DNA of 19,686 nucleotides, taken from positions 1-19,686 of IMG/VR virus record IMGVR_UViG_3300022486_000016. One strand, written 5' to 3'. This document shows, one piece after another, positions 1,418 through 19,686 of this stretch. Under the pieces are notes generated by a model. That model did not search any database, had not been told where the DNA came from, and was given only the letters and a program-made list of their open reading frames with translations. Position numbers and translations under genes: made by a program. Position 1 is the first letter of the stretch. Every line of letters begins with the position of its first letter. Source of the DNA: a virus.

Positions 1418-1421
1418 TATT

Positions 1422-1493: not shown

Positions 1494-1494
1494 G

Positions 1495-1520
1495 AAAAAG
1501 AGCCATGACGGCTCTTTTTT
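1495..1520. terminator. Bidirectional intrinsic terminator between the convergent left early and late transcription units
   Basis: AAAAAGAGCC-atgac-GGCTCTTTTT: a GC core stem flanked by an A-run and a T-run, so a U-tract follows the hairpin on either strand. It lies between the + strand ORF end (1493) and the - strand endolysin stop (1544). Confidence 0.75.
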
Positions 1521-1543
1521 GCTTTTGTTTAAGCTTTGTGTTA

Positions 1544-2866: not shown

Positions 2867-2870
2867 TCTT

Positions 2871-3257
2871 TTAGTCCTCCTTTGTCTTTAATTTGTTTTC
2901 GTAGCGTTCGATCTCAGCTTGGATTTTAGCTTGTAAGAATTTAGGTGTAATAACGCCCATTACACCGAGATTCTCAACGATTGATAAAGCGTAATTAAGC
3001 AAGCTATAGACAACAAGCGTAATGCCAAGCGTCGACATGTCAAAGTCAATTGCTAGACCATAAGCAAAGACATAAACGAGCAAAGTTGTCAAGTGTTTCA
3101 AGAGTCCTTTAACACCGACAGCGCTGTCGGTGACTTTCCAGACGTAGCTTTTTGCGTAACCTGTTGCGATGTCAATCGCGATGACAATTGTAAGCAATGC
3201 TGTCCAGTCGCTTTGAGCTGCTTTAAGTAGCGCTCCATAGAGTTGATGTTCTACCAT
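2871..3257 (-). CDS. Holin (phage_holin_4 / TcdE-like type, 128 aa)
   Basis: Small membrane protein with hydrophobic segments (LLTIVIAIDIATGY, LTTLLVYVFAYGLAI, LGITLVVYSLLNYAL) and a charged C-terminus. GAAAGGAGG SD. Sits directly upstream of the endolysin. Confidence 0.8.
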   Translation of the reverse strand: MVEHQLYGALLKAAQSDWTALLTIVIAIDIATGYAKSYVWKVTDSAVGVKGLLKHLTTLLVYVFAYGLAIDFDMSTLGITLVVYSLLNYALSIVENLGVMGVITPKFLQAKIQAEIERYENKLKTKED

Positions 3258-3278
3258 GTTTTCTCACCTCCTTTCTAG

Positions 3279-4358: not shown

Positions 4359-4374
4359 GCATGCTCATACCTCC

Positions 4375-7300: not shown

Positions 7301-7764
7301 GATCCTACGTTAAAACCTTGCGTGTTCGTGTGTCGTGCTCTGAAATTCTTGTCGTCGCTTGGCAAATATGGCAAATACTGAGCAATAGTTCCGCTGACTT
7401 GCGTATTTTTATTAAAGAGCATGGGTTGATAAGTGTTCCATATATCCAACTCGTAAATAATTTTAGTCGTATTCTCGTTAATGTAAGCGATGTCGTAAAC
7501 GAACGCGTAATACTCTTTACCAGCGTTTTTAAAAAACATGTAAGTCGCTGTCTCAAATTGTTCCTGACGTCCGCTTACGTAGATTTCACCCGTGCGTGAA
7601 ATAAACTGAAAATTATCAGATTCGTAAATCTTTTTAAGATGCGGTGAATCGGTATCAAAATATTTTTGCATCTCAGCGCGATTGTCAAAGTGAATGACGT
7701 TCGCGTAATCGCTACGAAATGGCGATTTTGAGTAAAGTTTAATTTTAGTTGTTTCTTTAACCAA
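4375..7764 (-). CDS. Tail knob protein (phi29 gp9-like N- and C-terminal parts) with an internal lysozyme-like + CHAP peptidoglycan hydrolase cassette, 1129 aa
   Basis: The N-terminus (SPFRSDYANV...YYAFVYDI...ELDIWNTYQ) resembles the phi29 gp9 N-terminus. Residues ~325-460 (LLGNAKQESS...GLGLWQWT...RWERAG) resemble the phage tail lysozyme family. Residues ~500-625 are CHAP-like (GNGQCYAL Cys, GAGHTGI His, EQNYG). Gly-rich linkers flank the cassette. TTG start at 7764, with AAAGGA 11 nt upstream. Confidence 0.8.
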   Translation of the reverse strand: MVKETTKIKLYSKSPFRSDYANVIHFDNRAEMQKYFDTDSPHLKKIYESDNFQFISRTGEIYVSGRQEQFETATYMFFKNAGKEYYAFVYDIAYINENTTKIIYELDIWNTYQPMLFNKNTQVSGTIAQYLPYLPSDDKNFRARHTNTQGFNVGSKATEEIYDVGANLVDWLVIVAKPEFKFKGEAGTPASDMSFSGTQKSLKYYFVPVEIAGKMTKQFELDGQTYPPKPIVTILLECFGITVGGKHISPTKDNTADAQHIATNNIVNMYYSRYLGIDYDYDGSVVKIKKADGDIFNVVGVGRQSSAAPSGGSGDLVTVGGPTGSEKEIAERIAKTIKANYPPATVNGIAALLGNAKQESSMDYTIDVAAGLGLWQWTSTRAQGLRNYAHSKGISEHTIEAQVGWLLNEPGESETAKAVLSGNDSAGNLSDVFVTRWERAGIPVADKRRAYAESFVPIVKAVINDASNNSNAGKNADNKTTSAPKPAEVTEKVIAKVKAMANKSVGNGQCYALSSYYCQCFREFGVDAPGLGAGVGNLYKQIGDTYNAYAIGSAYDWKSCGWGVKFNPSEEDFKNAAGCMINYKPNYGPTVTGGAGHTGICISYDGHSLHTVEQNYGNNGYTLDHVVTHVHADALSSICIPPDVLAGGKINPDVVGDASGGDGSGGANSAAYIVKIVEHPKAAPKFIEIDELKPKILKRLKAYIKDTLGERFVHMANQLLLISELIDVELYDYYGNTYAYQLELLNNLQTEDGKYYNKSAIMLLGSVGDQNYNFAGLVAYGHTHNIVDQNNKTFKIKAKADENIISKWDIMQYGIFDTTGKNLTILDDATATYIQGHAAQIKAQQASFNENASLQRQQADMNNRQTSFANDKNIYGANFAVDQSVFKRGKAGVMATVDVATNALDIFSPLKKDETYLGKFMSTASNTAKAGMNGYYNVQQSLMDVTNAKVNRSFAQDENELRSQSTALANLQAKTAIDQQIRAFNATMTDLQNQPDSIQQMGNDISFQTSNYQQGLFIRIRFPYPEQLKTVLTYMHLYGYIYQTESNDVLKYAYNRRAFNYIKLTSADVSGLEAPQSDLAMIKNILASGVRIWEAKYLDYTKPKPFDIYTPNPNRADDQAVLDSYRNFD

Positions 7765-7792
7765 GTTTTGAAAGTTCCTTTCTAGCTAACAT

Positions 7793-7827
7793 ATAAAAAT
7801 AGTGTTAGCTTTTTAACTAACACTATT
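7793..7827 (-). terminator. Candidate partial intrinsic terminator/attenuator inside the late operon
   Basis: An 11-bp perfect stem, AATAGTGTTAG (7798-7808) / CTAACACTATT (7817-7827), with an 8-nt loop. On the - strand RNA it is followed by UUUAUAU. The stem is AU-rich, so the call is marginal. Confidence 0.4.
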
Positions 7828-7869
7828 ATATCATACTTTGTACTATTGCGCTAGTACAAGTATCTTTTT

Positions 7870-8619
7870 TTAGTCGCCGATTTCGGTCTGTCCGACCCAC
7901 GTTCCGCCGTGGCGGATGCGGTGTTTTCCGCGTCCTTGAGCCTTTCTGTCAGCGTTGCTCATTGTGCTCACGTCGCTCCATGTTCCGCCTTTGCGGATTT
8001 TAAACCATCCGTTATGTTTTTGATGACTCTTGAAAGTGCCATTTTTGCGAGTCGCCCAAGGTCGAAACTCTGGCGGTGGAAAGTACGCGATAGCGTCAAA
8101 CCATAATTCGATTTTATTATCACCGCTTGGATCTGCGGCCAAGTCGTCAAAGCGTAGAAGTTTAATTCCTACGTGTTGCGTATGCTCGCGAGCAAATTCA
8201 CTTTTTTTAATAGTGAGGATAGGAACAGAACCGAACACCGTAGCGCCTCCGAGCTGTTGGTTATAGCTATAACCCGTACCTGACTGGTAGTGTAAGTCGA
8301 CCAGTGTTTGACCGTTCGCATTTACTAAGCTATCATGGACAGGGAAAGGAGTGCCACGGCGTAGGCTTGTGATAGTCAAGCCGTAACCGCTCACACCTTT
8401 TACTTTGATACGAATTTCGTCCGTCGTTTCTTCAATGTCATAGTCAAAACTTACTCGCGTGTCAATCGTTTCATTTTCTGGAGATCCGACCGTATAGGCG
8501 TTGTACATGTGAAAAATGGAAGTGTTGCCTTCGTAGCTCACGCCTCTATATGTACCCCCCTGAATGACAACAGGTTTAAGTTGAAAATCTACGCGTCCGC
8601 CGTTTTTAAGTTGTGCCAT
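7870..8619 (-). CDS. Virion structural protein, putative fibre/receptor-binding protein (249 aa)
   Basis: Sits in the structural block. GGAGGTG SD. The C-terminus has repeated basic motifs of the type K/R-I-R-K/H-G-G-T-W (FKIRKGGTW, HRIRHGGTW). The function is inferred from position only. Confidence 0.5.
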   Translation of the reverse strand: MAQLKNGGRVDFQLKPVVIQGGTYRGVSYEGNTSIFHMYNAYTVGSPENETIDTRVSFDYDIEETTDEIRIKVKGVSGYGLTITSLRRGTPFPVHDSLVNANGQTLVDLHYQSGTGYSYNQQLGGATVFGSVPILTIKKSEFAREHTQHVGIKLLRFDDLAADPSGDNKIELWFDAIAYFPPPEFRPWATRKNGTFKSHQKHNGWFKIRKGGTWSDVSTMSNADRKAQGRGKHRIRHGGTWVGQTEIGD

Positions 8620-8622
8620 ACA

Positions 8623-9327
8623 TTAAACACCTCCAGCCAAGTCGTCCTCTGTTGCTCCGTTATTTGTGCGGATAAAGTGCGCACCGTCTGTCGCTCCACC
8701 GAATACGTTAATATTACCTGTCGCAATATTGCGGTCTGGCTTAAGGTTACCATTTTCCCAAGCGCCTGAATTTTTGAGGTTGTCAATAATCTTATTGAGG
8801 TTGTTTTCAATCTCAGTAATACCGAGCTTATCTTTCAAATCTTTCAAAAATTTAGGGTCGTTGAGCAACTCTTTGAGATAGTCTTTAAACCATTTTTGCA
8901 TTTCAGGATCGTGCATAATTTCTTTGAGATAATCCTTGAAAAATTCACGCATGTCTGGATCTCGGAGAATATCTTTAAGATAATTTTTAAACCATTGCTT
9001 CAAGTCGCTATTAAGGACATCTTTGAGCAAGTCTGAGAAGATTTTGCGGAACTCTGTCGAGTGTGCAAAGCGTCGAATAAGTTCAGGAATAAGATATTCT
9101 AACAAATCAATTAGCGCATTTTTAAAGTCTTCAAACTCATTTTCCAACGCTGTAAAGTCGTCCAAGAGTTGCTTAAAGGCTCTTTGAAGCCACGCGATAA
9201 GCTCATAAATAGAGTTCGCGTTGTCAAAGCTCGTTGGGAGTTCTGGAATTAGTCCGAAGCGCTCAATCCAGTATTGACTATAACGACCGCGGTAGTTTTT
9301 GAAAAAGTCTTCGTTTTCGTTAAACAT
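8623..9327 (-). CDS. Putative fibre/appendage protein with four 17-aa helical repeats (234 aa from ATG 9327)
   Basis: The track start TTG 9333 is replaced by ATG 9327, which lies 7 nt after GAGGTG. The N-terminal NSIYELIAWLQRAF motif resembles N-termini of Gram-positive phage fibre/appendage proteins. Tandem repeats follow, then a Gly-rich C-terminus. Confidence 0.55.
   Translation of the reverse strand: MFNENEDFFKNYRGRYSQYWIERFGLIPELPTSFDNANSIYELIAWLQRAFKQLLDDFTALENEFEDFKNALIDLLEYLIPELIRRFAHSTEFRKIFSDLLKDVLNSDLKQWFKNYLKDILRDPDMREFFKDYLKEIMHDPEMQKWFKDYLKELLNDPKFLKDLKDKLGITEIENNLNKIIDNLKNSGAWENGNLKPDRNIATGNINVFGGATDGAHFIRTNNGATEDDLAGGV
8827..9030 (-). repeat. Four imperfect tandem 51-bp (17-aa) repeats inside the CDS
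   Basis: Protein units: LLKDVLNSDLKQWFKNY / LKDILRDPDMREFFKDY / LKEIMHDPEMQKWFKDY / LKELLNDPKFLKDLKDK. On the + strand, TTTGAGATAxTCxTTxAAA recurs about every 51 nt. Confidence 0.8.
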
Positions 9328-9344
9328 AATCAATCACCTCTTTT

Positions 9345-11111
9345 TTAGTAGATTGTTTTAAGAATAGGTGGACATTTTGTGCCAGGCTCAAGCAATTCGC
9401 TCGCTTTAATTGTTTCAACTTCCGCAGTGTCGACGTTGTACGTTTTAATATTAAAGTCGAGAAGCGCTTGAGCGTCCGATTTATTGCCGCTAAACGTAAC
9501 TGATGTACCTGACACGCTTACATGGACTGGAAGCCAATACCCACCCATGTCAATCAACAAACCGCCTGAGACAATTACACCAGCGTCAATGTCATCCTGT
9601 GTAAAGTTTGTACGTCCTTTAGCTTGTGAAAGTTGGAGAAGCGCTTTCGCAGGAGTGAGCGGTGGGAATTCAAGCCAGTCGCGAATTTGGATAAAATTGT
9701 TAGCGAAGTTTTTTTCGGCTGATGCGAAGCGGATGTCTGTCACAATGTTTGTAAGTACACGGTTTTCATCGTCATATTTAAGTGAGACGAACAATCCTGA
9801 TCCGCCGTTTAGTCCGCCGAGCTGGCTAGTTTTTAGACCGTGATCAAAATCGGTGAGTCGAGCGTCGTTGTAACCGGTTTCGTTAATGTTCTCTTGATCC
9901 CACGTTATCGTAACTGTTTCGCCTCCGACGACAAAATCTACAGATTCTAGACCTGTTTGTCGCGTGCGTGCTTGTAAAATTGCACGCTTAGATTCGTCGG
10001 TGACTTTGAGCGGTTCAGCGCTGTTTGTTGTATTAGCGTTCTTTAATTTCTCAGCGAGTGCATCAATCGCTTTTTTAAGCTCACCGTCAGCTGTTTTACT
10101 AGCTTCTCCGAGTTTTGTGACTGCGTCCGTCACGCTTGCAATATCTGAGATTTCTTTCGTTTTAGCGTCTTCGAGCTTTTTAGCTAAAGCGTCAGCTTTT
10201 GTTTTCGCTTCGTTTGCTTTGCCTTGTGCTTCAGCCGCGCGGTCTTGTGCGTCCTGAACAGCGACACCTAAAGCATCAAAGTCAGGAAGCGCTGGTTTTG
10301 CAACTTCAAGACGAATTTCTCCGACTTCTCGCGAGAAGTCGAGAGAGTCGATAGAGTTGTCATTTTGCTTGAGAGTAACAGTAAGAGTGACATTATCTGA
10401 CACCGACAAGCTGACAGCGTTCGAATTATCTAAGTCTGTATAGAGTTCGACGCGTTTGAGTCCTTCGACGCGTCCGTTATGTTTTTTCGCAATGTCGCGA
10501 CTTTCTTCGTTGACGTACAATTTCGCATCTTTTGGCAACTTCGACAAGATTTCTTTAATGTTGTCGATATCGGTTTTTAGCAACTTGTCAGCACCTTCAG
10601 ACGCTTCTTGCAATTTTGCAAGAGCGTCTTTCACGTCCGCAATTTGAGTAATAGCAGTAGTAGCCTTTTGGTCTGCAAGACCTGCTTTTTCTGCTGCTTT
10701 GTCAGCTTTATCTTTCGCTTCTTTTGCGTCATTCAAAGCTTTTGTCAAGTCCGCTTCAATTAATGTACCGTCAATTACCGCTTTTTCTTGCGTTTTGTTA
10801 ATGCTGAGATATTTGCCAGCAGTTTCGAGAGCTAGACCGCGATAGTCGTGCCCAAGGGCGACTGATTTTTTCGGATCATCCGTTCCTTCATCAGCTGTTG
10901 TAACGGTCGTAGTGACAAAAGGAGTCCCTGAGACTTCGTTAACTTTGTCTGGATCAGCTTTTACTTTTAATTTAAAGTCTCCATCACGCTCTGAAAAGTC
11001 AACGCTTGTAAGCGCATCTTTTCCGCTTACGCTAATGTCTTTAATTTTTTGATGTTGTTGGAATTGAATGGTCTTTGAAACTGGTAAAGGTCGTTTAGTT
11101 GATTTAGTCAT
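9345..11111 (-). CDS. Large fibre/appendage protein with a duplicated beta-segment + Ala/Lys/Asp coiled-coil module (588 aa)
   Basis: GAGGAAA SD. There are two similar modules: DFSERDGDFKLKVKA followed by KALNDAKEAKDKADKAAEKAG..., and DFSREVGEIRLEVAK followed by DAQDRAAEAQGKANEAKTKADALAKK.... A distinct C-terminal globular part follows. The receptor-binding role is inferred. Confidence 0.6.
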   Translation of the reverse strand: MTKSTKRPLPVSKTIQFQQHQKIKDISVSGKDALTSVDFSERDGDFKLKVKADPDKVNEVSGTPFVTTTVTTADEGTDDPKKSVALGHDYRGLALETAGKYLSINKTQEKAVIDGTLIEADLTKALNDAKEAKDKADKAAEKAGLADQKATTAITQIADVKDALAKLQEASEGADKLLKTDIDNIKEILSKLPKDAKLYVNEESRDIAKKHNGRVEGLKRVELYTDLDNSNAVSLSVSDNVTLTVTLKQNDNSIDSLDFSREVGEIRLEVAKPALPDFDALGVAVQDAQDRAAEAQGKANEAKTKADALAKKLEDAKTKEISDIASVTDAVTKLGEASKTADGELKKAIDALAEKLKNANTTNSAEPLKVTDESKRAILQARTRQTGLESVDFVVGGETVTITWDQENINETGYNDARLTDFDHGLKTSQLGGLNGGSGLFVSLKYDDENRVLTNIVTDIRFASAEKNFANNFIQIRDWLEFPPLTPAKALLQLSQAKGRTNFTQDDIDAGVIVSGGLLIDMGGYWLPVHVSVSGTSVTFSGNKSDAQALLDFNIKTYNVDTAEVETIKASELLEPGTKCPPILKTIY

Positions 11112-11409
11112 AATTTTTTTCCTCGTTTTCTATAAATGTAAAACTCATGGTTTTTGGATGCAATTCCGCTAGCTGTTTTAAATAAAGGACAGCTTGCAAA
11201 AGCATTTTTTTCGTTTGCTTGCTGTACGCTATTTCAGCGTAACTGTAACCGTCCGCCGTTTTTTTGTCGATGATCTTGTGAGTGAAAGTGTATGTGATAG
11301 CCTGAAAAGCCGTCGTCGCTCGGGCGCAATCTTCACGCCCCGTGGCGCTGTGCCCTTTTACTGTTAGGCGGAGGCTTGTTGCGGTCATTTCCGCATTTAT
11401 TGTAATCAT
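11104..11409 (-). CDS. Prp-like (ribosomal-processing cysteine protease family, former DUF464) small protease candidate, 101 aa
   Basis: MITI..., LRLTVKGHSATGREDCARATTA and C-terminal LLQAVLYLKQL line up by eye with S. aureus Prp (MITV..., DGHADHGEYGHDIVCAGASA, LILQTMLVSLQT). That includes the His/Cys dyad positions and the ~100-aa size. Confidence 0.5.
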   Translation of the reverse strand: MITINAEMTATSLRLTVKGHSATGREDCARATTAFQAITYTFTHKIIDKKTADGYSYAEIAYSKQTKKMLLQAVLYLKQLAELHPKTMSFTFIENEEKNYD

Positions 11410-12095
11410 AGTTTTTCGTGTCCTTCCCCTCCGACCAAAGAAATACGTTTCTCGCCGTCGTGGTTATTCGTCGCGGTGAGTTGGAACTTATCCCAATCTT
11501 TCAGGTAGTGCACCCATCCAGGCTTTTTGAGTCCTCGGTTGTTGTTGTCATACCATACAATACCGATTTCTTCCCAGCTTTCCGCATCGTTCCAAGGTTT
11601 CTCATAAGTTGCTTTAAATTTAAAATTATTAGACGTTAAGACTCCGTTATCCCAATGCGTAAGCTCGTTGATAATAGGTATACGACTAAAATACTCATTA
11701 TCGTCAATGACTCGCCCGAAGCCTTTAAGTTTAGACTTAGATAAAAGCTTATCTTTGCTATAATAAACGCCTAAAACTTTAAAGCGGATGAAACATAAGC
11801 AGTTAAGCTCGTCGCCTGATGTCGTTACGGCTGTAATCGGTTTGTTTACAACTTTCGAGCGTGTTGATGTAATGCCCCAACGTTCAGCGCTTGATGCGTC
11901 TGCGTAGTAGTAAAGCACCGCTCGCGCTTTGACGTAGAGATTTTTTAAGCGTTTACCATAGCGTGGATTAGTTACTTTAAAATAGTACAGCTCGTCAGGC
12001 TCAGGTGTGAAATCCTGAGGTACTTTAATAAGTAGCTGAGCTAGATATTTATCGTAGCTGACTAAGTTTTCGTTAGCTATTGTTAATTCTCGCAT
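11406..12095 (-). CDS. Structural-module protein, unknown function (229 aa)
   Basis: AAAGGA SD. ATGA-type overlap with the downstream gene. Located between the lower collar and the protease. I recognise no motif. Confidence 0.6.
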   Translation of the reverse strand: MRELTIANENLVSYDKYLAQLLIKVPQDFTPEPDELYYFKVTNPRYGKRLKNLYVKARAVLYYYADASSAERWGITSTRSKVVNKPITAVTTSGDELNCLCFIRFKVLGVYYSKDKLLSKSKLKGFGRVIDDNEYFSRIPIINELTHWDNGVLTSNNFKFKATYEKPWNDAESWEEIGIVWYDNNNRGLKKPGWVHYLKDWDKFQLTATNNHDGEKRISLVGGEGHEKL

Positions 12096-12112
12096 AGTTT
12101 GTCCTTTCTAGG

Positions 12113-12772
12113 TCACCACACTTGTAAAAAGAGCGGTTCCAAAATGTTGAAGATTTCAAAAGTGAGGTCTTCCATTTGCGCGAGTTGGTTGTAACGCTGA
12201 GCGAGTTGACCGCCTGCCCATCCGTGCGTATAGCTGTGGTGGTCTTCCTTGCCTTTTGCGTTACCCTCACCGAGCGCATTTGCGTAATCTATTGCGCCGT
12301 ACTTTTGGTCGTGGTCGTTGTCATAAGTTATGCTTAAGTGTTCTTGTGGTGTCGTGTTTGAAATCGATAAAGTGTGACTGTCATTTTTAGAGCTTCCGTC
12401 GTTATACATGCTGGTATCTTGATTCATTTGATCAAGTGACATGTTTTTAAGCGTGTCACGGACTTTAAACAAATTGAGACAGTCCGTGTTTAATTCTTGC
12501 TCTAAAAATACCTGGAAGCGTGCGAACGTCTCGAAACCGATTTCGCGATTATAGAAACGCTGACAAAAGAGTTTTTTAAAGTCGTCATCGACGTACTTAT
12601 TTAAGTGCATGTCTTTAAATAGCTCATTAAATGTCTGGTCAATAATGACATTATAGTGTAAAAAGTCGCCGTTTTCGTCAACTGCCAAACCGTCAAGATT
12701 TCCTGTAATCGGATTACGATACCGAGATTTTAAAAATTGCTCAATTGTTACTGTTGTGTTGTTTTGTGTCAT
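12113..12772 (-). CDS. Lower collar protein (phi29 gp11-like)
   Basis: FYNREIGFETFARF resembles the conserved lower-collar motif as I remember it. It sits directly after the connector gene, as in phi29. GGAGG SD. Confidence 0.65.
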   Translation of the reverse strand: MTQNNTTVTIEQFLKSRYRNPITGNLDGLAVDENGDFLHYNVIIDQTFNELFKDMHLNKYVDDDFKKLFCQRFYNREIGFETFARFQVFLEQELNTDCLNLFKVRDTLKNMSLDQMNQDTSMYNDGSSKNDSHTLSISNTTPQEHLSITYDNDHDQKYGAIDYANALGEGNAKGKEDHHSYTHGWAGGQLAQRYNQLAQMEDLTFEIFNILEPLFLQVW

Positions 12773-13806
12773 GGCTGTAAACCTCCGTCCGCGTTGTCGT
12801 CGAGATTTTCGGTGTTTAAGTCTTTCTCAACATCCGCAAAGTTAAAGCGTTGCACCCATTCAGCAGGCTCTACGTCAATATTTAAGCCGTAAGCTTCATT
12901 AATACGTTTCACCGCGTTTCGACGAGATTTCCAACCTACCTCAATATTAGCTGAGATAATTCCTGCGTTAGAAATTGCTTCAGCAGTAACTAAGCGCTCA
13001 GCTTTGTCCACTGGATTATTATTAATACCTATAAATGTTAAGAGCTGATTGATCACTCGGTTTTTTTCGTCGTGTAACTTATCCAAGAGATACGGAGCCT
13101 CAGTCCTAAAGACTTTAATTCTGTCGTCTAACTGTTGGAAGTCTGCTGTCCCTGCGGCGTTCTTTTGCGTGTTAGCGTAAACGACAGGCTCAAAGCTCTG
13201 GATCTTGTTAAAAATATTTTTTAAACTTAATACAGATTTTTCATCAGCTAAGACAAAGAACGGAGTGACTTGAGCGTTGCGGTTTAATTGAATAGTCATT
13301 TCAATATCTGCGAGCTTTTCGCAATAGAGGTGGATATAGTCCAGATATGGCTCAAATAAGTTATTATTCGGAATAACGATACAAGGTTTGTCCGTCCGTG
13401 TCTCATCATGCATTTTTTGGAGTAAGTCAAAATCCCTTTTACTGTACGCGATTTGCATTTTAGGGAATCGCATCTGCTGAGCCGCGTTAACAGGTAAGTA
13501 CGTCGTCGGATAGTCGTAAATGTTTAACTCTTGCCCGCGTGTGCCTCCTTGGACGACATATCCGAGCTGTTCGTCTTCGAAAAATGCAACGTGTCCATTT
13601 TCCAAAAGCTTACGCTCTATAAAGAGCTCATCAAGGTCATTCGGTAAATTGTACCAAGAGAAGTAGTTTACGACAATGTCATAAAAGTAATTAAAGTAAA
13701 AGTTATACCATGCTGTACGATTACGGTCGACGGTTGTTTTACTGTGTTCAATGCGTCCTAAAGTTTTTGTATATTCCTTGAGACTGTGATAATTTACAGT
13801 ATTCAA
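12769..13806 (-). CDS. Head-tail connector / portal (upper collar, phi29 gp10-like)
   Basis: By-eye matches to phi29 gp10: RNRTAWYNFYFNYF versus RNRWFIHYLNYL; LNRNAQVTPFFV versus VNQNAQKTPVLI; FRTEAPYLLDKLHDEKN versus FKTDAPYVVDKLNAQKN; INEAYGLNIDV versus INELYGLNVKV. TTG start, 7 nt after GAGGA. Confidence 0.85.
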   Translation of the reverse strand: MNTVNYHSLKEYTKTLGRIEHSKTTVDRNRTAWYNFYFNYFYDIVVNYFSWYNLPNDLDELFIERKLLENGHVAFFEDEQLGYVVQGGTRGQELNIYDYPTTYLPVNAAQQMRFPKMQIAYSKRDFDLLQKMHDETRTDKPCIVIPNNNLFEPYLDYIHLYCEKLADIEMTIQLNRNAQVTPFFVLADEKSVLSLKNIFNKIQSFEPVVYANTQKNAAGTADFQQLDDRIKVFRTEAPYLLDKLHDEKNRVINQLLTFIGINNNPVDKAERLVTAEAISNAGIISANIEVGWKSRRNAVKRINEAYGLNIDVEPAEWVQRFNFADVEKDLNTENLDDNADGGLQP

Positions 13807-13830
13807 ATACTTTTCCTCGCTTTCTTTGTT

Positions 13831-13864
13831 TTAATAAAAGCCCAGACCCATTGTGGGCAGGGCT
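13831..13864 (-). terminator. Intrinsic terminator (probably partial) just downstream of the major capsid gene
   Basis: The - strand RNA reads AGCCCUGCCCA-caa-UGGGUCUGGGCU, a GC-rich stem with one small bulge, followed by UUUAUU. It starts 16 nt after the capsid stop codon. Confidence 0.6.
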
Positions 13865-13879
13865 AGTAGAGGAATACTA

Positions 13880-14977
13880 TTAGTCTTCCACGTAGAACAT
13901 GTGGATGTTTTCGAAAAGTGAAAGGCTAGTAAGGTAATGGTGATGGTAGAAGTAGTTATAAGACATAGTCTTTGGATTGCGGATGCTTTCCATGTGTACT
14001 AATTTGTCCTTTAAGATAATCGAGTTCTTAGATACTAAGAAAGCAACTGGACGGCGTCCGTTATTTTGTCCAGCTCCTGTGAACTTGTCAAAGAAGTCGA
14101 CAACAATTTGACGAGCTTGGACTGACGCTTTATCCATGTTGAAAGCGTTAGCAAGCATGAGGTCGATATCAGTTGAGTATTCAGCGTCGATAATCAAATA
14201 TTGATCTTCGAGTGGCGTCGCATTAGGTACACCTACTGGATTATTTGAATGAGCTTTATCACGCGAAGGGATTGTAAACTGTTTAGATTTCGCGATGATG
14301 TCCTTCACCATTTCCTCAATATAGTTATTATGAGTCGTGTCGACTTTAGTACCTGCTACCGTGATTTGGTGAGCTGTACCAGCGTTATCTGTGTAAGTAA
14401 CCTCAGCGAGTGAGTCGTTAAGCACTTGTTTAACTGCTGCATATTCATCGAGCGTGTCTGAGCTAATCAAAGATGTGAACATTTTGTCAATAAATTCATC
14501 AAATGCCATATCTGAGGTAAAGGCTTTTTGAACCCAGGCACGTTCGAAAGTACGATCGTAGCGGTATTCGTTGTTCAACTTGTGATAAAAGACTTCGATA
14601 TCTGTATCAGCGAAAGCGAAAGGATGTCCGTTGTCTTTTGCGTTAAAGTTGTTACGTTCCGCAGGTGCGACGTAAATTTCTTCCAACGTATCACCGAACT
14701 CGAAAATTTCAGATTTAAAAATAGCGAGTGGGTTTTCATAAGTCAAAGCCTTCACGACAACTGATCCAATACGGTTAATCAACTGTTCAAAAAATTCATT
14801 TTCATGAACTTGAAATTGTTGTACAGGGATATTACTGTGGTTGATAGCGCCTTTAAGTACAGGAATGTCAGCCCGATAAGCATTTGAAGCTTTTTCACGG
14901 ATGGCGTTTAAGAGGTCGATGTTGCTTACTGTTTGTCCCGTTTCATGAGACATAAAGCGTGTAATTTTATTGCTCAT
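13880..14977 (-). CDS. Major capsid protein (phi29 gp8-like)
   Basis: By-eye matches to the phi29 gp8 N-terminal half: DLLNAIRE versus DIVNAIRN; RIGSVVVKA versus RIGLVVIRQ; NPLAIFK versus NPLKKFK; TLEEIY versus TIEEIY. AAGGAG SD. Confidence 0.85.
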   Translation of the reverse strand: MSNKITRFMSHETGQTVSNIDLLNAIREKASNAYRADIPVLKGAINHSNIPVQQFQVHENEFFEQLINRIGSVVVKALTYENPLAIFKSEIFEFGDTLEEIYVAPAERNNFNAKDNGHPFAFADTDIEVFYHKLNNEYRYDRTFERAWVQKAFTSDMAFDEFIDKMFTSLISSDTLDEYAAVKQVLNDSLAEVTYTDNAGTAHQITVAGTKVDTTHNNYIEEMVKDIIAKSKQFTIPSRDKAHSNNPVGVPNATPLEDQYLIIDAEYSTDIDLMLANAFNMDKASVQARQIVVDFFDKFTGAGQNNGRRPVAFLVSKNSIILKDKLVHMESIRNPKTMSYNYFYHHHYLTSLSLFENIHMFYVED

Positions 14978-15210
14978 TATTTTTCTCCTTCTTCTACAGG
15001 AATTTGATTATTTTCGTTAACTTCAGTCGTTTCGAGTTCGTCAGCGCGTTCAACGCGTTCAGGATAATTTTGTTCACGGTTTGCGATGTTATCCGCAGGC
15101 GTTTCGAGTGGTTGTTCGACGTCGGTAGGTGCGTTAGTTTCTACGGCACGGTCAGCGTAAATAGCTTTAAGCTCGTCGCGTCCGTACCAGTCAATTTTTG
15201 GAAGATTCAT
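14977..15210 (-). CDS. Small acidic head-morphogenesis protein (77 aa), function unknown
   Basis: AAAGGA SD. Its stop overlaps the capsid start (ATAATG). Very acidic and of low complexity. Positioned between the scaffold candidate and the capsid gene. Confidence 0.6.
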   Translation of the reverse strand: MNLPKIDWYGRDELKAIYADRAVETNAPTDVEQPLETPADNIANREQNYPERVERADELETTEVNENNQIPVEEGEK

Positions 15211-15233
15211 TTTTTTGGTGTCCTTTCTGTTAA

Positions 15234-15536
15234 TTAAAACAAGTCGTTAATTTGTGCAATTTTTGAGACTGCTTCTTTAGCTTCCTCAGCTGCCTCGTTT
15301 TGTTTTCCGATTTGACGGTAAAGCGTGTTATTAGATGCCATAAGACCTTGGTTTTTCTTGTTAAGGTTTGCGACATCTTCGTTCAACGTTGCCACGATTT
15401 CGTCAATTGTACTTACAAAATCTTTAAGCGTAATAAGATCCGCGAGAATTGATTCGATTTCGTCGTCGTTCCCAACACGTTCAGGGAGAGAGTCGAGAAG
15501 CTCAAGAGCGTCTTTAGTTTCAAAAGCTGTATCCAT
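15234..15536 (-). CDS. Scaffolding protein candidate (100 aa, acidic, helical)
   Basis: The track ORF starts at 15584, inside the promoter. I trimmed it to ATG 15536 (MDTAFETKD...), which follows AAAGGAGG. It is the first late gene, and its size and composition resemble phi29 gp7 (98 aa). Confidence 0.7.
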   Translation of the reverse strand: MDTAFETKDALELLDSLPERVGNDDEIESILADLITLKDFVSTIDEIVATLNEDVANLNKKNQGLMASNNTLYRQIGKQNEAAEEAKEAVSKIAQINDLF

Positions 15537-15569
15537 TGTGGAGAAGCCTCCTTTACATTTATTTGTACT

Positions 15570-15601
15570 ATTATAATAACACAAGACAACAAATATGTCA
15601 A
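15570..15601 (-). promoter_or_regulatory. Late-operon promoter (P-late)
   Basis: On the - strand: TTGACA (15601-15596), a 17-nt spacer ending TGt, then TATTAT (15578-15573). This overlaps TATAAT (15575-15570). The SD and scaffold start follow. About 45 nt are paralogous to the promoter at 15966..15997. Confidence 0.75.
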
Positions 15602-15606
15602 GTGGC

Positions 15607-15635
15607 TTGACACTTTTAATGGTTTGTGTTAAGAT
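15607..15635 (+). promoter_or_regulatory. Plus-strand promoter divergent from P-late
   Basis: TTGACA (15607-15612), 17-nt spacer with TGt, TAAGAT (15630-15635). Its -35 and the P-late -35 together form the palindrome TGTCAAG-tgg-CTTGACA (15596-15612). Confidence 0.65.
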
Positions 15636-15641
15636 AATAAT

Positions 15642-15788
15642 ACAAGAAGCACCGATTGTGATTGACGTATAGCGTCTGGACGATTACGCATTGAGTTGCG
15701 CCTGACGCTTTCGCATCTTAATCACATGCTCTGTCAGTCGCTCTCGATTCGTTTCTTCAAACAGTTTCCTTACGGAAGCTGTTTTTTT
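15642..15788 (+). ncRNA. Candidate small RNA A (~147 nt)
   Basis: Bounded by the + promoter and a + terminator. Nested helices: AAGAAGC (15644-50) / GUUUCUU (15751-57); UGUGAUU (15657-63) / AAUCACA (15720-26); AGCGUC (15671-76) / GACGCU (15704-09); CGCA (15687-90) / UGCG (15697-15700). Two G-U pairs exist only in the + sense. No SD-led ORF is present. Confidence 0.55.
15759..15788 (+). terminator. Intrinsic terminator of candidate RNA A
   Basis: ACAGTTTCC-ttac-GGAAGCTGT, 9 bp including one U-G wobble that would be an A-C mismatch on the other strand, followed by T7 (15782-15788). Confidence 0.7.
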
Positions 15789-15794
15789 ATATAT

Positions 15795-15824
15795 AAAAAA
15801 TCCCCTTAGACATCTCGTCTAAGG
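15795..15824 (-). terminator. Intrinsic terminator of candidate RNA B
   Basis: On the - strand: CCUUAGAC-gagau-GUCUAAGG (15824-15804), then GGAUUUUUUAUAU. It converges 3'-to-3' with the RNA A terminator across the spacer T7-ATATAT-A6. Confidence 0.6.
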
Positions 15825-15960
15825 AGTAGTAGTGGTAGAGCTAAATTTGATAGATAAATAAGAAAGAAAGGAGATTTTATGATTTAATAAGAAAGGTGGT
15901 ACTTCATATAGTAAGACTCGTGTAATTTTGTGAGATAGACGCTCTACCTTGCCTATCTCT
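15795..15960 (-). ncRNA. Candidate small RNA B (~165 nt), pRNA-like size
   Basis: Bounded by the late-type promoter at 15966..15997 and the terminator at 15795..15824. It has a 5' hairpin GAGAUAG/CUAUCUC (15959-53 / 15938-32). A 5'-proximal GGUAGAGC (15948-41) pairs with a 3'-proximal GCUCUACC (15841-34). The AU-rich core holds two anti-SD-like tracts (CCACCUUUCUU, UCUCCUUUCUUUCU). There is no credible ORF. Confidence 0.5.
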
Positions 15961-15965
15961 GTACT

Positions 15966-15997
15966 ATTATAATAACACACTAAGGCAAATACGTCAA
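15966..15997 (-). promoter_or_regulatory. Late-type promoter paralog (drives candidate RNA B)
   Basis: On the - strand: TTGACG (15997-15992), 17 nt ending TGt, TATTAT/TATAAT (15974-15966). The string CTTGAC(G/A)TATTTG...TGTGTTATTATAATAGTACA is shared with P-late. Confidence 0.7.
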
Positions 15998-16009
15998 GCG
16001 TCAGGATAC

Positions 16010-16037
16010 AAAAAAAGAGCGTTTTTTATAAACGCCC
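16010..16037 (-). terminator. Intrinsic terminator T2 (second copy of a duplicated terminator module)
   Basis: On the - strand: GGGCGUU-uauaaaa-AACGCUC followed by U7. The G-U pair exists only in the - sense (A-C mismatch in the + sense). It shares the 17-nt identity TACAAAAAAAGAGCGTT with 16089-16105. Confidence 0.65.
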
Positions 16038-16091
16038 TGACGATTCCTGAGTAGTGCCAGTAACTCTAACGCGTACCACTAAAAACAGTAC

Positions 16092-16120
16092 AAAAAAAGA
16101 GCGTTGCACTACTAACGCCC
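16092..16120 (-). terminator. Intrinsic terminator T1 (ends the early operon and candidate RNA C)
   Basis: On the - strand: GGGCGUU-aguagugc-AACGCUC followed by U7. It is the first terminator after the polymerase stop codon. Confidence 0.7.
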
Positions 16121-16163
16121 CGATTTTAGCGATACTCTGCGAGGCAATACCACTTAACCTCAC
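16092..16163 (-). ncRNA. Candidate small RNA C (~70 nt; ~155 nt if it reads through to T2 at 16010)
   Basis: It lies between a perfect-consensus promoter (16170..16198) and T1. There is no ORF (ATG ATG TGA only). Confidence 0.45.
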
Positions 16164-16169
16164 ATCATT

Positions 16170-16198
16170 ATTATAGCAAAACTTTAAAAAATTGTCAA
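16170..16198 (-). promoter_or_regulatory. Consensus promoter overlapping the polymerase stop codon
   Basis: On the - strand: TTGACA (16198-16193, containing the polymerase TGA stop), 17-nt spacer ending TGc, TATAAT (16175-16170). Confidence 0.7.
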
Positions 16199-17811
16199 TA
16201 GTCAAAATCATCAATGGCTTTAATTTCAAAAGTTGTCGTGACAATGGACATACCGCCACGGCGACCAATCATTTTTTTGAGACCGTCGAACTTTTGACCA
16301 ACTTTGAAATTTTCAAAGGTTACTTGTTTCTTTACAGCGTCCGTCATGCCTGCTACCTTGACGTGGAGTGAGCCGTCAGTTTTTTGGATAGCGTAGCATT
16401 TTTGACGGATATATTTAAAGCGAGTTCCTGTAACTTCGAGATCAAATGCACCGAGTTTTTTTGCGTCGACCTCAAATTTTACATTTTTAGTCGTTAAGTG
16501 TACCGCGTCGGTATCACTGTAAACAAAGTTATCACGATGCATTAGAGCGATTGATACAATATAAGTACGAGCAATAGACGCGATTGCGGCAGTCATTGGC
16601 GCATAAATCGCTTTTACAAATGTATCGCGTCCGTTTTCATAGACCACACGTCCTGTCGTTTCATCGATGCGAGGATCTTTGCTTGTTAAACGAGTTTTAG
16701 CGCCAAACTTACCGTAAAGACTCACAAGCATAGCTTTCGCGTGTTGACGGCTAAAAGGAGTCGATGCCTCTTGTTTTTCAGCGTAGTATTTATTTACATA
16801 CATATCAAACAAACCGCGAGCACCTGCAAATGTTACCTGTTTAAAAAATACAAAATCCACAACGTCGTAACTTTTCAAGAAAAGCTGATATTCAGTCCAG
16901 GACATACAAAACGTAGAGCGTCCTTTAGTTTCATAAATCAGATGTCCTTCTTGACACATGCTATTCTCTGTTTTCGCAAACGGGAAAAATCCGTCCTTTA
17001 ATTCAAATTCACATTCAAAGCTAACAAACGAAACTTGAGACTCTAAAGGAGCTTTAGGCTTTGTTGTATTGATTTCGACAGGCTTGCCGTAAGGGAGAAC
17101 AGCGGATTTTTGGATAAAAGCGTACATACTATTAATATCAAAAACGTTGATTTCACCTTTGATGTCTTTGTTTACATATTTAGGAACGATGTAATTCCAA
17201 CCCGATTTATCAACCTCACGACAAAGTTTATCGACATCGTCTGGCAACTGTGGAAAGTAGCTGTCAAAGGCGTAGCCTTGCTGTTTCATAATTTGTTTAA
17301 ACTCATACAAAGCCTGAGAAGCATTAGTAAAACGAACGTATTTACCAGCTACGAAATATTCTTCAACCGCTTTACAAAAGACATCGATATCGCTACCCGA
17401 AAGCTTAAAGGTCTCACGCATGGCGTCAACACCGCCATCAAAAACTTTTTTAAAGTCTTTAATCTCAAAGCGGTAATCATTCACATAGAAACGCAACTCG
17501 TAAAACTCTAAGCCAATCTGTGTATCATACTTAATACCGTTCTCGATAAAATATGCGACAAATGTATTAGTAACTTCAATTAAGCTAGGAACAAAAAGCG
17601 TATGTACTGTGTTTGTATCATTAAGCCCTTGACCTACCCAAGCTTTTAAAAATGCACCAATGCTTTCGAACGTTGTAGCAGAAGTAGTAAGACAACGTTT
17701 AAACGTTATGCTATTAAGTGTAACGCTTTGAACGTCTTCACTGACCATGTCCGCCACTGCCGCATAGTACGTGCGGTCAGTGCGGTTCTTTTTATTATCT
17801 GTGGTATTCAT
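16195..17811 (-). CDS. Protein-primed family-B DNA polymerase (phi29 gp2-like), 538 aa
   Basis: Motif A VFDINSMYAF, motif B AKAMLVSLYGKFGAK, motif C FVYSDTDAVHL, KxY motif RQKCYAIQ. The C-terminal AGMTDAVKKQVTFENFKVG is almost identical to phi29 AGMTDKIKKEVTFENFKVG. See the findings for the missing exonuclease residues. Confidence 0.95.
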   Translation of the reverse strand: MNTTDNKKNRTDRTYYAAVADMVSEDVQSVTLNSITFKRCLTTSATTFESIGAFLKAWVGQGLNDTNTVHTLFVPSLIEVTNTFVAYFIENGIKYDTQIGLEFYELRFYVNDYRFEIKDFKKVFDGGVDAMRETFKLSGSDIDVFCKAVEEYFVAGKYVRFTNASQALYEFKQIMKQQGYAFDSYFPQLPDDVDKLCREVDKSGWNYIVPKYVNKDIKGEINVFDINSMYAFIQKSAVLPYGKPVEINTTKPKAPLESQVSFVSFECEFELKDGFFPFAKTENSMCQEGHLIYETKGRSTFCMSWTEYQLFLKSYDVVDFVFFKQVTFAGARGLFDMYVNKYYAEKQEASTPFSRQHAKAMLVSLYGKFGAKTRLTSKDPRIDETTGRVVYENGRDTFVKAIYAPMTAAIASIARTYIVSIALMHRDNFVYSDTDAVHLTTKNVKFEVDAKKLGAFDLEVTGTRFKYIRQKCYAIQKTDGSLHVKVAGMTDAVKKQVTFENFKVGQKFDGLKKMIGRRGGMSIVTTTFEIKAIDDFDY

Positions 17812-17836
17812 AATAAAGTATCGCTTTCTTTATTTG

Positions 17837-18577
17837 TTATTTTTTACGTTTTGCTGAACGACTGCGAGCGTTCTTTGATGCTCTACTGATATCATCAAAA
17901 GATCCAGAAAGCTCACTCGCTTTAGTGCTGTCGCTCATTTCTATTTTTTTACCGTCGGAATCATAAAACCATTCACGGAGATTTTTAATGTTCCATTCCA
18001 TTCGCGTTGATGGATCTCGGATACTGTCTACAAACTTTGTAGGACTGAGTAAACGAACGCTACGAATCGCGGCACGTGCTTCTTTTAATTGTCCAGGTGT
18101 AGCGCCCGCCTTTTTCATAACTTTATAGCGAGATTCAAGAGCGCTGATATACTGGCTCTTTTTGTCTTTTGCGTAGCTTGTTTTCATCTTACGGACTTGC
18201 GTTTCATTCATGCGACTAAACTTGCTTTTTTGTTCACTTGCCCAATTGCGCCCCATTGCCACGCCGTCCACTCGTCCACCGCCTTCGATAGTTGTTTCCA
18301 TACGTCGAAAGAGTTGGAGTTTTTTCGTCGTCGACTCACGGTAAATACCGCCCGTCTCTGGATTGACCGAGAGATCTTTGGACGAGTAAGCCTTAGTCTT
18401 TAGTTTACTTGCTACGCGTCGTACTGTCTTTGTATCCATTTCTTTACTAGAGAGAGTATTAGTACCAAGGACAGCTTTAATCTCTTCGTCTTTTGCGCCC
18501 ATGCTTGAAAGTTGATTGACACGGCGTGTGATATACCCACGGTCACTGCTGAGGCTTGTTTTTTTCTTAGCTGTCAT
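17837..18577 (-). CDS. Terminal protein candidate (246 aa, basic)
   Basis: Lies immediately upstream of the polymerase, as gene 3 does in phi29. Its size is similar to known terminal proteins (phi29 266 aa). Lys/Arg/Ser-rich. AAAGGA SD. Called from synteny; I recognise no sequence motif. Confidence 0.6.
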   Translation of the reverse strand: MTAKKKTSLSSDRGYITRRVNQLSSMGAKDEEIKAVLGTNTLSSKEMDTKTVRRVASKLKTKAYSSKDLSVNPETGGIYRESTTKKLQLFRRMETTIEGGGRVDGVAMGRNWASEQKSKFSRMNETQVRKMKTSYAKDKKSQYISALESRYKVMKKAGATPGQLKEARAAIRSVRLLSPTKFVDSIRDPSTRMEWNIKNLREWFYDSDGKKIEMSDSTKASELSGSFDDISRASKNARSRSAKRKK

Positions 18578-18866
18578 AATCTAGTCCTTTCATAAACAAA
18601 TCTAATGAGATATACGATGTCAATTTCTTGTACGCGATATCCGTAACTTTAAATCCGTCGTATCCGTTTTCGTCGCAATACTCAGCATAACGACGATTAA
18701 TTTCAGATTGTGTACGCTTGAGCGGTAGTGTCATATTATATTCAGTCGTGGTGATGTCGCCATCTGTGCTTACGTTGTAAACGTAGCCTTTCACAAATGT
18801 AACCGCTCGACGTACACTTACTGTACGCTCTGTATCGTCCATATATTTATAATAACCTTTACGCAT
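18567..18866 (-). CDS. Early protein, unknown function (99 aa); SSB/DNA-binding role is possible from position only
   Basis: First gene after the internal early promoter. AAGGA SD. Overlaps the start of the terminal-protein candidate by 11 nt. No motifs recognised. Confidence 0.6.
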   Translation of the reverse strand: MRKGYYKYMDDTERTVSVRRAVTFVKGYVYNVSTDGDITTTEYNMTLPLKRTQSEINRRYAEYCDENGYDGFKVTDIAYKKLTSYISLDLFMKGLDYDS

Positions 18867-18901
18867 AATGTTTTAATCCTTTTTTGTTTTTCTTTACTAT
18901 A

Positions 18902-18930
18902 AGTATACACCAAATAGGGTGATTTGTCAA
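18902..18930 (-). promoter_or_regulatory. Internal early promoter
   Basis: On the - strand: TTGACA (18930-18925), 17 nt, TATACT (18907-18902). The downstream TATACTTATAGTAAAGAA is identical to that of the proximal ITR promoter. Confidence 0.7.
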
Positions 18931-18969
18931 GTGTAATACCCTACTTTTTTTAAAAATGTTTATATGTTT

Positions 18970-19368
18970 TTATTTTAAATGATTGAAGAAGTACTCAGCG
19001 TCCATGTTGTAATCTTTTGGCTCAATCGCTGATTTTTTACGTTTCGTCTTTGCATACGCGTCAACTATATCCGTATAAGCTACGTCTTTATCTTGAGATA
19101 GTAGTAGCTCAAGGCAAGCATCCACGCGCTTAATCTTCAAATCCTTTGGCCCTGCCTTACGAAACCACGACTCTACTTTTTTAAGTTGCTGTGGTGCTCG
19201 GTACGGATCCATTTTCATATTCCAACAATATGATTTAATCAGTAAGCCCGCTGATTTAGGTAAGGCGCTGTCAGGCATATAATAATCTAAAAACATATTT
19301 TTCTGATTCATCAGGTCACGCACGTAACCCTGATAGGCTTTCAATAATTCTAAGCTTAGTGTTTCCAT
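18970..19368 (-). CDS. Early protein, unknown function (132 aa, basic/helical)
   Basis: The track ORF starts at 19419, inside the ITR and promoter. I trimmed it to ATG 19368 (METLSLELL...), 10 nt after AAAGGAG (19379-19385). That SD straddles the ITR boundary. Confidence 0.65.
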   Translation of the reverse strand: METLSLELLKAYQGYVRDLMNQKNMFLDYYMPDSALPKSAGLLIKSYCWNMKMDPYRAPQQLKKVESWFRKAGPKDLKIKRVDACLELLLSQDKDVAYTDIVDAYAKTKRKKSAIEPKDYNMDAEYFFNHLK

Positions 19369-19402
19369 CTGGAGATTTTCTCCTTTCATATTCTTTACTA
19401 TA

Positions 19403-19431
19403 AGTATAGCACACCTCAATCATTTTGTCAA
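19403..19431 (-). promoter_or_regulatory. Early promoter in ITR-R (proximal), mirror of 256..284
   Basis: Exact ITR copy: TTGACA (19431-19426), 17 nt, TATACT (19408-19403) on the - strand. Confidence 0.75.
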
Positions 19432-19488
19432 ACGTTTTATCTTAGTCATTTCAAATAATTAAAGTAGCTATCCCTTATTTCTAATATA

Positions 19489-19517
19489 AGTATAACACCG
19501 TTTAGCTATATTGTCAA
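19489..19517 (-). promoter_or_regulatory. Early promoter in ITR-R (distal), mirror of 170..198
   Basis: Exact ITR copy: TTGACA (19517-19512), 17 nt, TATACT (19494-19489) on the - strand. Confidence 0.75.
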
Positions 19518-19686
19518 GCGTAAGACCATCGTTTATTTATGCGCCATCATATGCGCGACCATGTAAGCGCCTAAGCATAGACATCAAAATTTTTAATGAG
19601 TCGATTTTAAGACACGGTATAATTTTAAAAAATTGATATACGATTTCAGGACTATCGAGGGGAACCGATTTCCGCTTCTACAGCCC

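Follow-up and report, generated by a model that had tools for sequence, protein, structure and literature searches.

A protein-primed DNA polymerase of a Cp-1-like phage that has probably lost its exonuclease and kept the domain

The 19,686-nucleotide (nt) record IMGVR_UViG_3300022486_000016 of IMG/VR, hereafter the window (the whole stretch of DNA analysed, positions 1 to 19,686), is the complete linear 19.7-kb genome of a podophage of the Cp-1/phi29 type with a full gene set. Its single DNA polymerase gene (16195-17811, minus strand) encodes a protein-primed family B enzyme which, judging from its aligned residues, is almost certainly without proofreading ability. We consider it likely that this protein is a naturally exonuclease-dead, protein-primed replicase that retains its old exonuclease domain as a scaffold. 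Polymerases of the phi29 type are the textbook single-subunit replicases, combining protein priming, extreme processivity, strand displacement and proofreading. An initial annotation of the window had proposed by eye that the N-terminal part of this polymerase (17182-17811, minus strand, which corresponds to residues 1-210 of the 538-amino-acid (aa) open reading frame (ORF), as it stated) is exonuclease-inactive. This proposal is well supported by the sequence comparisons presented here, although the residues chosen by eye were wrong at the motifs ExoI and ExoIII. The gene, its domains and the motif remnants are located as follows:

16195-17811, minus strand: DNA polymerase gene, 538-aa ORF, protein-primed family B, phi29/Cp-1 type.
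17332-17811, minus strand: residues 1-160, putative degenerate pseudo-exonuclease N-terminal domain, delimited by HHalign to the outgroup exonuclease domain, model confidence and substitution ratios.
16195-17331, minus strand: residues 161-538, polymerisation domain (palm, terminal protein region 1 (TPR1), fingers, TPR2, thumb), from an end-to-end alignment with phi29, catalytic residues intact.
17743-17769, minus strand: residues 15-23, ExoI remnant YYAAVADMV, from the 59-sequence MAFFT alignment, against YYAGDFETT in the outgroup.
17560-17598, minus strand: residues 72-84, ExoII remnant LFVPSLIEVTNTF, from MAFFT, HHalign and hmmsearch.
17365-17409, minus strand: residues 135-149, ExoIII remnant FKLSGSDIDVFCKAV, from phmmer, MAFFT, hmmsearch and full-length HHalign.
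17200-17211, minus strand: degenerate YxGG/A motif DKSG, with phi29 Y226 replaced by D201 and G228 by S203.

The sequences closest to the window protein form a clade of three clusters at 90% identity, with 237, 56 and 12 sequences (305 in total). From this clade, 36 distinct full-length members were retrieved, mostly on contigs of ~18-20 kb (near the full genome length), and four of them, from separate samples, were compared in detail. For the residue assignments, the window protein, three representatives of the ~90% clusters and 55 more distant homologues, used as the outgroup, were aligned with MAFFT (59 sequences).

The 538-aa protein matches the Pfam family PF03175 (DNA_pol_B_2; E 1.5e-27, 97 bits for a cutoff of 25.8, residues 159-441), PHROG 1907 'DNA polymerase' (E 1e-67) and the PDB chains of phi29 DNA polymerase (E 5e-46). 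Its identity to the phi29 enzyme is ~32% and BLAST and phmmer can align it only from residue ~118-120 on, so that the words 'strikingly close' used initially for its resemblance to phi29 were too strong. The polymerisation domain carries motif A (DINSMYA, reference form Dx2SLYP), motif B (KAMLVSLYG, reference form Kx3NSxYG), motif C (YSDTDA, reference form YxDTDS) and KYIRQKCY at the KxY position, and the catalytic residues D225 (A), K359 and Y366 (B), D433 and D435 (C), as well as Y230, are fixed in all 36 clade members. Both TPR insertions, a hallmark specific to protein-primed family B polymerases, are present, the alignment being colinear through phi29 residues 261-358 and 398-420, with a beta-hairpin at residues 374-398 in the structural model.

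In phi29, the exonuclease site of this DEDDy (DnaQ-like) type is built from the metal-binding carboxylates D12, E14, D66 and D169, with Y165, whose role is to orient the attacking water, and K143 (PMC4974454). Y165 is the tyrosine of ExoIII and K143 the auxiliary lysine of family B (Kx2hxA). Universal conservation of ExoI, ExoII and ExoIII has been reported for the group of phi29, Nf and GA-1 (PMC1635332). The ExoII register was agreed by MAFFT (twice), by HHalign of the N-terminus only and by hmmsearch of a relative (P0001) against the outgroup profile. In this register, phi29 H61 is replaced by P75, N62 by S76 (S or N in the clade), F65 by E79, D66 by V80 and G67 by T81 (T, A or C in the clade), which confirms the Ser and Val proposed by eye at N62 and D66. 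Full-length HHalign still places V80 at D66 and inserts a gap that brings T71 to N62. For ExoI, MAFFT replaces D12 by V19, F13 by A20, E14 by D21 and T15 by M22, whereas an alternative HHalign register of low confidence places D21 at D12 and V23 at E14, and in the full-length HHalign comparison residues 1-48 stay unaligned. None of the registers obtained keeps more than one ExoI carboxylate. The pairing of SEDVQSVT with SCDFETTT, by which the initial annotation had set Gln at E14, was reproduced by none of the methods; SEDVQS was rejected as ExoI, its D26 being Asn in 23 of the 36 relatives.

At ExoIII, a deletion of ~26-31 residues takes out both K143 and Y165. Beyond it, D141 (in SGSDIDVF) aligns with D169 (in IKNDIQII) according to phmmer, MAFFT, hmmsearch and full-length HHalign, and a single forced-global HHalign run deletes D169 as well. 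Non-acidic residues had been announced at both Y165 and D169: the first position lies within the deletion, but the second is probably kept. Outside the three motifs, phi29 S122 is F120 in the clade, and the degenerate DKSG stands at YxGG/A, which is listed among the DNA- and TP-contact motifs of phi29 polymerase, TP being the terminal protein (PMC4974454, PMC1635332). A regular-expression search over residues 1-215 of the window protein found no DxE and no Yx3D, as had been stated initially; a literal Nx3YD string, NGIKYD (residues 91-96), is nevertheless present and aligns with phi29 RNGFKWS, away from ExoII. The anchors of the by-eye alignment ENGIKY/RNGFKW, IKDFKKVF/IYDSLKKL and FKL were recovered by MAFFT, hmmsearch and HHalign, whereas EEY had been misplaced.

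Profile alignment, named earlier as a check on the by-eye reading, corrects it in part by placing Asp at two of the four metal-binding positions (D21 and D141); two is the maximum number of these carboxylates that is kept, and D21 is variable among the relatives. With Val at D12 and D66, Y165 and K143 removed and the ligands of single-stranded DNA (ssDNA) T15, N62, F65 and S122 replaced, proofreading is almost certainly impossible. The two positions occupied by Val are those changed in D12A/D66A, the exo-minus phi29 enzyme used for crystallography (PMC4974454). The loss described here differs from it in that it arose in nature, has become fixed in a lineage and goes further, through the deletion of K143 and Y165 and through additional substitutions. 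In another double mutant, D12A/D169A, exonuclease activity falls ~1e5-fold (PMC12383890).

Phi29 D12, F13, E14, T15, N62, D66, G67, S122, K143, Y165 and D169 are invariant in 55 of the 55 outgroup homologues and F65 in 54 of them, and with such invariance the absence of the motifs is lineage-specific and not due to chance. Among the columns conserved to at least 95% in the outgroup, 16 of 23 are altered by the clade in the exonuclease domain and 13 of 54 in the polymerase domain (Fisher p = 2.7e-4). Within the clade, V80, E79, D141, D143, M22, F120 and the degenerate YxGG of DKSG type are fixed (36/36), and position 19 is Val in 33 of the 36 members. Position 21 is Asp in 28, Asn in 4, Lys in 1 and Gly in 1, and is missing in 2; a catalytic residue would be expected to be more constrained than this position is. 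In the four genomes, for which the synonymous divergence (dS) is ~1, the ratio of nonsynonymous to synonymous divergence (dN/dS) ranges from 0.07 to 0.12 in residues 1-145 and from 0.03 to 0.07 in the remainder. An ongoing relaxation of selection on the clade polymerase was considered and rejected, the dN/dS of the whole gene (0.053-0.060) being equal to that of the Cp-1/Cp-7 pair (0.055). The ratio of dN between exonuclease and polymerase domains is also similar, ~1.0-2.0 in the clade and 0.4-1.6 in the exo-proficient Cp-1 group.

The DnaQ-like fold of phi29 appears to be retained in the N-terminal domain, a conclusion well supported, although not by independent lines, by profile alignment and by a homologue-informed model. 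HHalign against the outgroup profile aligned residues 49-534 with 100% probability and residues 11-145 alone with 79% (E 1.7e-5). The AlphaFold2 (AF2) model computed with the 59-sequence alignment has a predicted local distance difference test (pLDDT) score of 87 overall and of 73-93 for residues 11-150, its N-terminal domain shows the order of strands and helices expected for a DnaQ-like fold, and Foldseek superposes it on full-length phi29 polymerase with a template-modelling (TM) score of 0.86-0.88. The protein resembles phi29 gp2 (TM 0.87) in family, in size class and in architecture, with its exonuclease-like domain, palm, TPR1, fingers, TPR2 and thumb. The N-terminal domain is neither a pseudogene nor an artefact, since it is under strong purifying selection (dN/dS ~0.1) and models as a phi29 fold.

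Four other explanations have to be weighed against a dead exonuclease kept as a scaffold. It is very improbable that the pattern is an artefact of sequencing or assembly, that it comes from a frameshift or a wrongly called start, or that it marks the pseudogenised N-terminus of a defective phage. Two clade members (P0126 and P0140) are indeed called as 517 aa starting at M22, but this is probably a choice of the gene caller, since codons 1-21 are under purifying selection in the four genomes: they differ there by synonymous changes at conserved residues, which indicates that these codons are translated and that the annotated start is used. Moreover, 36 distinct full-length versions drawn from the 305 clustered sequences agree in ORF length and in their substitutions, dN/dS is ~0.1 at dS ~1, and the genome is complete, with perfect inverted terminal repeats (ITRs) and a full gene set; frameshift or sequencing error, raised initially as a possible objection, is excluded. 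That the N-terminal domain is instead an unrelated replacement, as in the domain swaps of the fusions of protein-primed family B polymerase (pPolB) with helicase in polinton-like viruses (PLV), would agree with the failure of phmmer and BLAST to align residues 1-118 with any other polymerase, with the low confidence of the AF2 model built from the clade only, and with a phmmer search of residues 1-150 against 1.84 billion representatives, which returned only the protein's own cluster and a spurious repetitive sequence (P0121, E 1.7e-4), without intermediates. This replacement is scarcely credible in view of the HHalign matches given above, of the colinear anchors (the helix at the FHNLKFD position, ENGIKY, WY/FY, DSLK/DFKK, FKL and D169) and of the superposition of the homologue-informed model on full-length phi29 polymerase.

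The two remaining explanations concern proofreading itself. A re-wired site, in which D21, E79 (directly preceding the lost D66), D141 and D143 would form a metal centre, could account for the invariance of E79, D141 and D143 in all 36 members, for the alignment of D141 with the catalytic D169 and for the strong purifying selection on the domain. We nevertheless judge an active exonuclease of this kind to be quite unlikely: D21 is replaced by Asn, Lys or Gly in 6 of the 36 members, Y165 and K143 are deleted, the ssDNA ligands T15, N62, F65 and S122 are all substituted, and we know of no DEDD exonuclease with an arrangement of the D21/E79/D141/D143 type. A single D12A or D170A substitution already cripples enzymes of the phi29 type, as reported for a related phi29-like polymerase (PMC12383890). 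It is unlikely, too, that an exo-dead polymerase is corrected in trans by a 3'-5' exonuclease of the host or by a small unannotated phage protein. Proofreading in trans exists elsewhere, as with the epsilon subunit of Pol III, and seven small ORFs of the window (149/132, 99, 80, 77, 116, 132 and 113 aa) have no family match. Typical DnaQ-like domains, however, comprise ~170 aa or more and the unannotated ORFs are shorter, and no match to an exonuclease or helicase family was found among the 21 other ORFs scanned with PHROGs, Pfam or both (not every ORF in both). In replication of the phi29 type, moreover, the polymerase binds once and then copies processively (PMC4974454), so that an external nuclease would have little access.

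Several observations weigh against a replicase devoid of any exonuclease function. The ExoI register is the least certain of the assignments, three different registers having been obtained. The carboxylate of D169 is probably retained as D141, and the invariant E79 and D143 lie near it and near the possible ligand D21, so that a weaker, re-wired site is conceivable. The AF2 model of the N-terminal 160 residues calculated with the four clade sequences only has a pLDDT of 44 and is uninformative. In addition, phi29 mutants of the D12A type were reported with reduced polymerisation (PMC12383890).

The exo-dead replicase proposed here also carries changes within its polymerase part. Several positions invariant in 53-55 of the 55 outgroup polymerases are altered and fixed in the clade, among them the non-catalytic P255 to A231 (motif A), N387 to V363 (motif B) and S459 to A436 (motif C), as well as Y226 to D201, K555 to L511 and T434 to A411. 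In comparison with phi29, the substituted positions include T15, N62, F65, S122, Y226/G228, P255, N387, S459 and K555. The fixed changes of the polymerase domain may compensate for the loss of proofreading or result from it. The YxGG/A motif and K555 are said, from mutagenesis in the Salas laboratory, to act in the shuttling of the primer between the polymerase and exonuclease sites, and the degenerate YxGG/A together with K555L may fit a loss of this shuttling.

The genomic surroundings of the polymerase gene are those of a protein-primed phage, with the following elements:

1-305, no strand: left ITR, 305 nt, 100% complementary to 19382-19686, putative replication origin of a protein-primed linear genome.
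19382-19686, no strand: right ITR, 305 nt, perfect complement of 1-305.
17837-18577, minus strand: TP gene, 246 aa, directly upstream of the polymerase gene and in the same position as Cp-1 orf4.

As in phi29, the genome is linear and bounded by ITRs, and a TP gene adjoins the polymerase gene, although the repeats have 305 nt here and 6 nt in phi29 (PMC4974454). In Cp-1 they have 236 nt. Promoter-like units, TTGACA...TATACT, recur inside the repeats of the window as repeat pairs I2 and I3. The TP assignment follows from orthologues in the relatives that match Pfam Phage_Cp-1_Terminal, albeit weakly or faintly, and the protein is 23-27% identical to TPs of the Cp-1 type. Besides the TP-like protein and the polymerase, the genome encodes a scaffold protein, a phi29-type major capsid protein (MCP), a connector, a lower collar, a tail knob, a packaging ATPase of the gp16 type, a holin and an endolysin.

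The closest cultured relatives are the Streptococcus phages Cp-1, Cp-7 and SOCP, which share with the window an identical gene order, long ITRs and the Cp-1-type TP family. Cp-1-like phages form the genus Cepunavirus, placed in Salasmaviridae in GenBank records and in Madridviridae in a 2024 review (PMC11476376). All compared genes are colinear with those of Cp-1-like phages, with identities of 67-70% for the MCP, 64-70% for the connector, 52-55% for the lower collar and 52% for the ATPase; a megablast search with the entire window found no match among 50,697 phage records, and hence no genus-level nucleotide similarity to Cp-1, Cp-7 or SOCP. Unlike the window protein, the polymerases of the Cp-1 type keep DFETT, HNLKFDG, K143 and YxxxD. 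Cp-1 differs further from the window by its polymerase (orf5, 31% identical) and its TP (23%), by the possession of orf6 and orf7, absent here, and by its lysin, which in the window is of a CHAP+GH25 type and not of the Cpl-1 type.

The top-scoring outgroup polymerase (P0004) is that of a Cp-1-like phage and shares 78% identity with the Cp-1 enzyme, and the exo-proficient pair formed by Cp-1 and the phage L007 has diverged evenly (MCP 83%, connector 77%, polymerase 78%, TP 73%). Compared with the same Cp-1-like phages, the window phage reaches only 31-32% for the polymerase and 23-27% for the TP, yet 67-70% for the MCP and 64-70% for the connector. The replication module (17837-18577 and 16195-17811) is thus far more diverged than the structural one (12769-14977), which places the TP-polymerase pair on a long branch that, from these identities, would reflect either a burst of co-evolution or an acquisition from an unsampled lineage. 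A recent homogenisation of the structural module by mosaicism was also considered and found to be unsupported, dS being ~1 uniformly across the genes.

Other features of the genome were noted. The endolysin (1544-2866, minus strand) has a CHAP+GH25 organisation and is 59% identical to lysins of the B30 type from group B streptococcal phages; its GH25 part alone matches Cpl-1 of Cp-1 (51%), and its C-terminal ~100 residues are unaligned to Cpl-1. From this likeness to the lysins of group B streptococcal phages, the host is probably a non-pneumococcal Streptococcus. A single tail gene of 1129 aa (4375-7764, minus strand) merges regions that are separate in Cp-1 as orf17, orf18 and orf19, and contains Caud_tail_N, tail lysozyme and phi29 gp9 C-terminal domains. 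At 18970-19419 (minus strand), a mechanically called 149-aa ORF with a TTG start begins within the right ITR; the protein called there in the relatives has 132 aa, and translation more probably starts from the ATG at 19368. This ORF and its 99-aa neighbour, both without family match, sit where Cp-1 has the early genes orf1-3 upstream of the TP gene.

A gap of 610 nt (15585-16194, minus strand) separates the polymerase stop from the scaffold gene and has no credible gene, the only candidate being a doubtful 80-aa ORF with a TTG start at 16026-16268 that is uncalled in the relatives; in Cp-1, this position is occupied by orf6 and orf7. The gap is 92% identical across the four genomes, although synonymous sites of the flanking genes are near saturation. 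It contains three consensus TTGACA-N17-TATAAT promoters and several terminators made of a stem-loop and a T-run, which delimit promoter-to-terminator units of ~175 nt for one and ~70 nt for another. The longer unit has what we take to be the size of the phi29 packaging RNA (pRNA). No Rfam family, pRNA included, was found in the window or when the gap was scanned by itself, the only match, to SprD, being noise (18 bits for a gathering score of 100).

The initial annotation had held that a loss of the exonuclease was not described for this family, which is too broad, as the protein-primed polymerases of mavirus and of PLV have already lost it (PMC11161782). These eukaryotic elements offer a parallel, with a natural loss of the exonuclease and a predicted lower fidelity, mavirus pPolB keeping only a remnant of the domain and the PLV pPolB-S1H ('Tlr1-like helicases') being without it; both losses accompany the gain of a helicase, S3H or S1H (PMC11161782). 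In the window, by contrast, the exonuclease domain is kept under purifying selection, only its active site appears to be destroyed, and the ORF scans gave no helicase match. Eukaryotic Pol alpha and Pol zeta and archaeal PolB2 resemble it in that the exonuclease fold is kept, the catalytic residues are substituted and the polymerase is active or partly active (PMC7544198). Those, however, are RNA- or DNA-primed cellular enzymes that work beside proofreading polymerases, whereas the window protein is the sole, protein-primed replicase of a virus. Our literature search, which covered few papers from subscription journals, returned no report of an exo-dead phi29-like polymerase in a tailed phage, and the 2024 review of this phage group makes no mention of one (PMC11476376). 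Two members of the clade from metagenome-assembled genomes in GenBank (UVY23598.1 and DAN30603.1) are annotated simply as DNA polymerase.

A scheme of replication by an exo-dead enzyme can be proposed from these data. Synthesis would start on the adjacent TP at the 305-nt ITRs, and the 19.7-kb genome would be copied processively with strand displacement. In phi29, the downstream-template tunnel on which strand displacement depends is built in part by the exonuclease domain (PMC4974454), whose residues S122, Y59, H61 and F69 contact the TP, according to the titles of work cited in the literature. The dead domain of the window polymerase may likewise help to build the template tunnel together with TPR2 and the TP-binding surface together with TPR1, and such a scaffold role would explain its conservation. 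Fidelity would come from nucleotide selection alone; with the insertion discrimination published for phi29 (1e-4 to 1e-6; PMC4974454), ~0.02-2 errors would be expected per copy of the 19,686-nt genome. A genome of 20 kb may tolerate such errors, which may also aid escape from host defences. We lean, with only slightly better than even confidence, towards an abundant and evolutionarily stable lineage of tailed phages whose protein-primed replication is free of proofreading, in which the dead domain serves purely as a scaffold for strand displacement and TP docking and the mutation rate is ~10- to 100-fold above that of the exo-proficient Cp-1-like cousins, this factor being our own estimate.

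If this is true, the lineage would represent a natural DNA-virus mutator, and its replicase a ready-made exo-minus strand-displacing polymerase, a natural candidate for the uses of the engineered exo-minus phi29 enzyme. The way in which it compensates for polymerisation defects of the D12A type would inform engineering. A comparison of exo-dead with exo-proficient Cp-1-like phages, apparently phages of streptococci according to their lysins and closest relatives, would allow a test of how proofreading affects phage evolvability. For the biology of the group, proofreading would be dispensable in nature for a protein-primed phage of ~20 kb, and the loss of the exonuclease need not come with the gain of a helicase, unlike in mavirus and polinton-like viruses. 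The exonuclease domain would have an essential non-catalytic role, in line with the phi29 literature on the template tunnel and the TP contacts.

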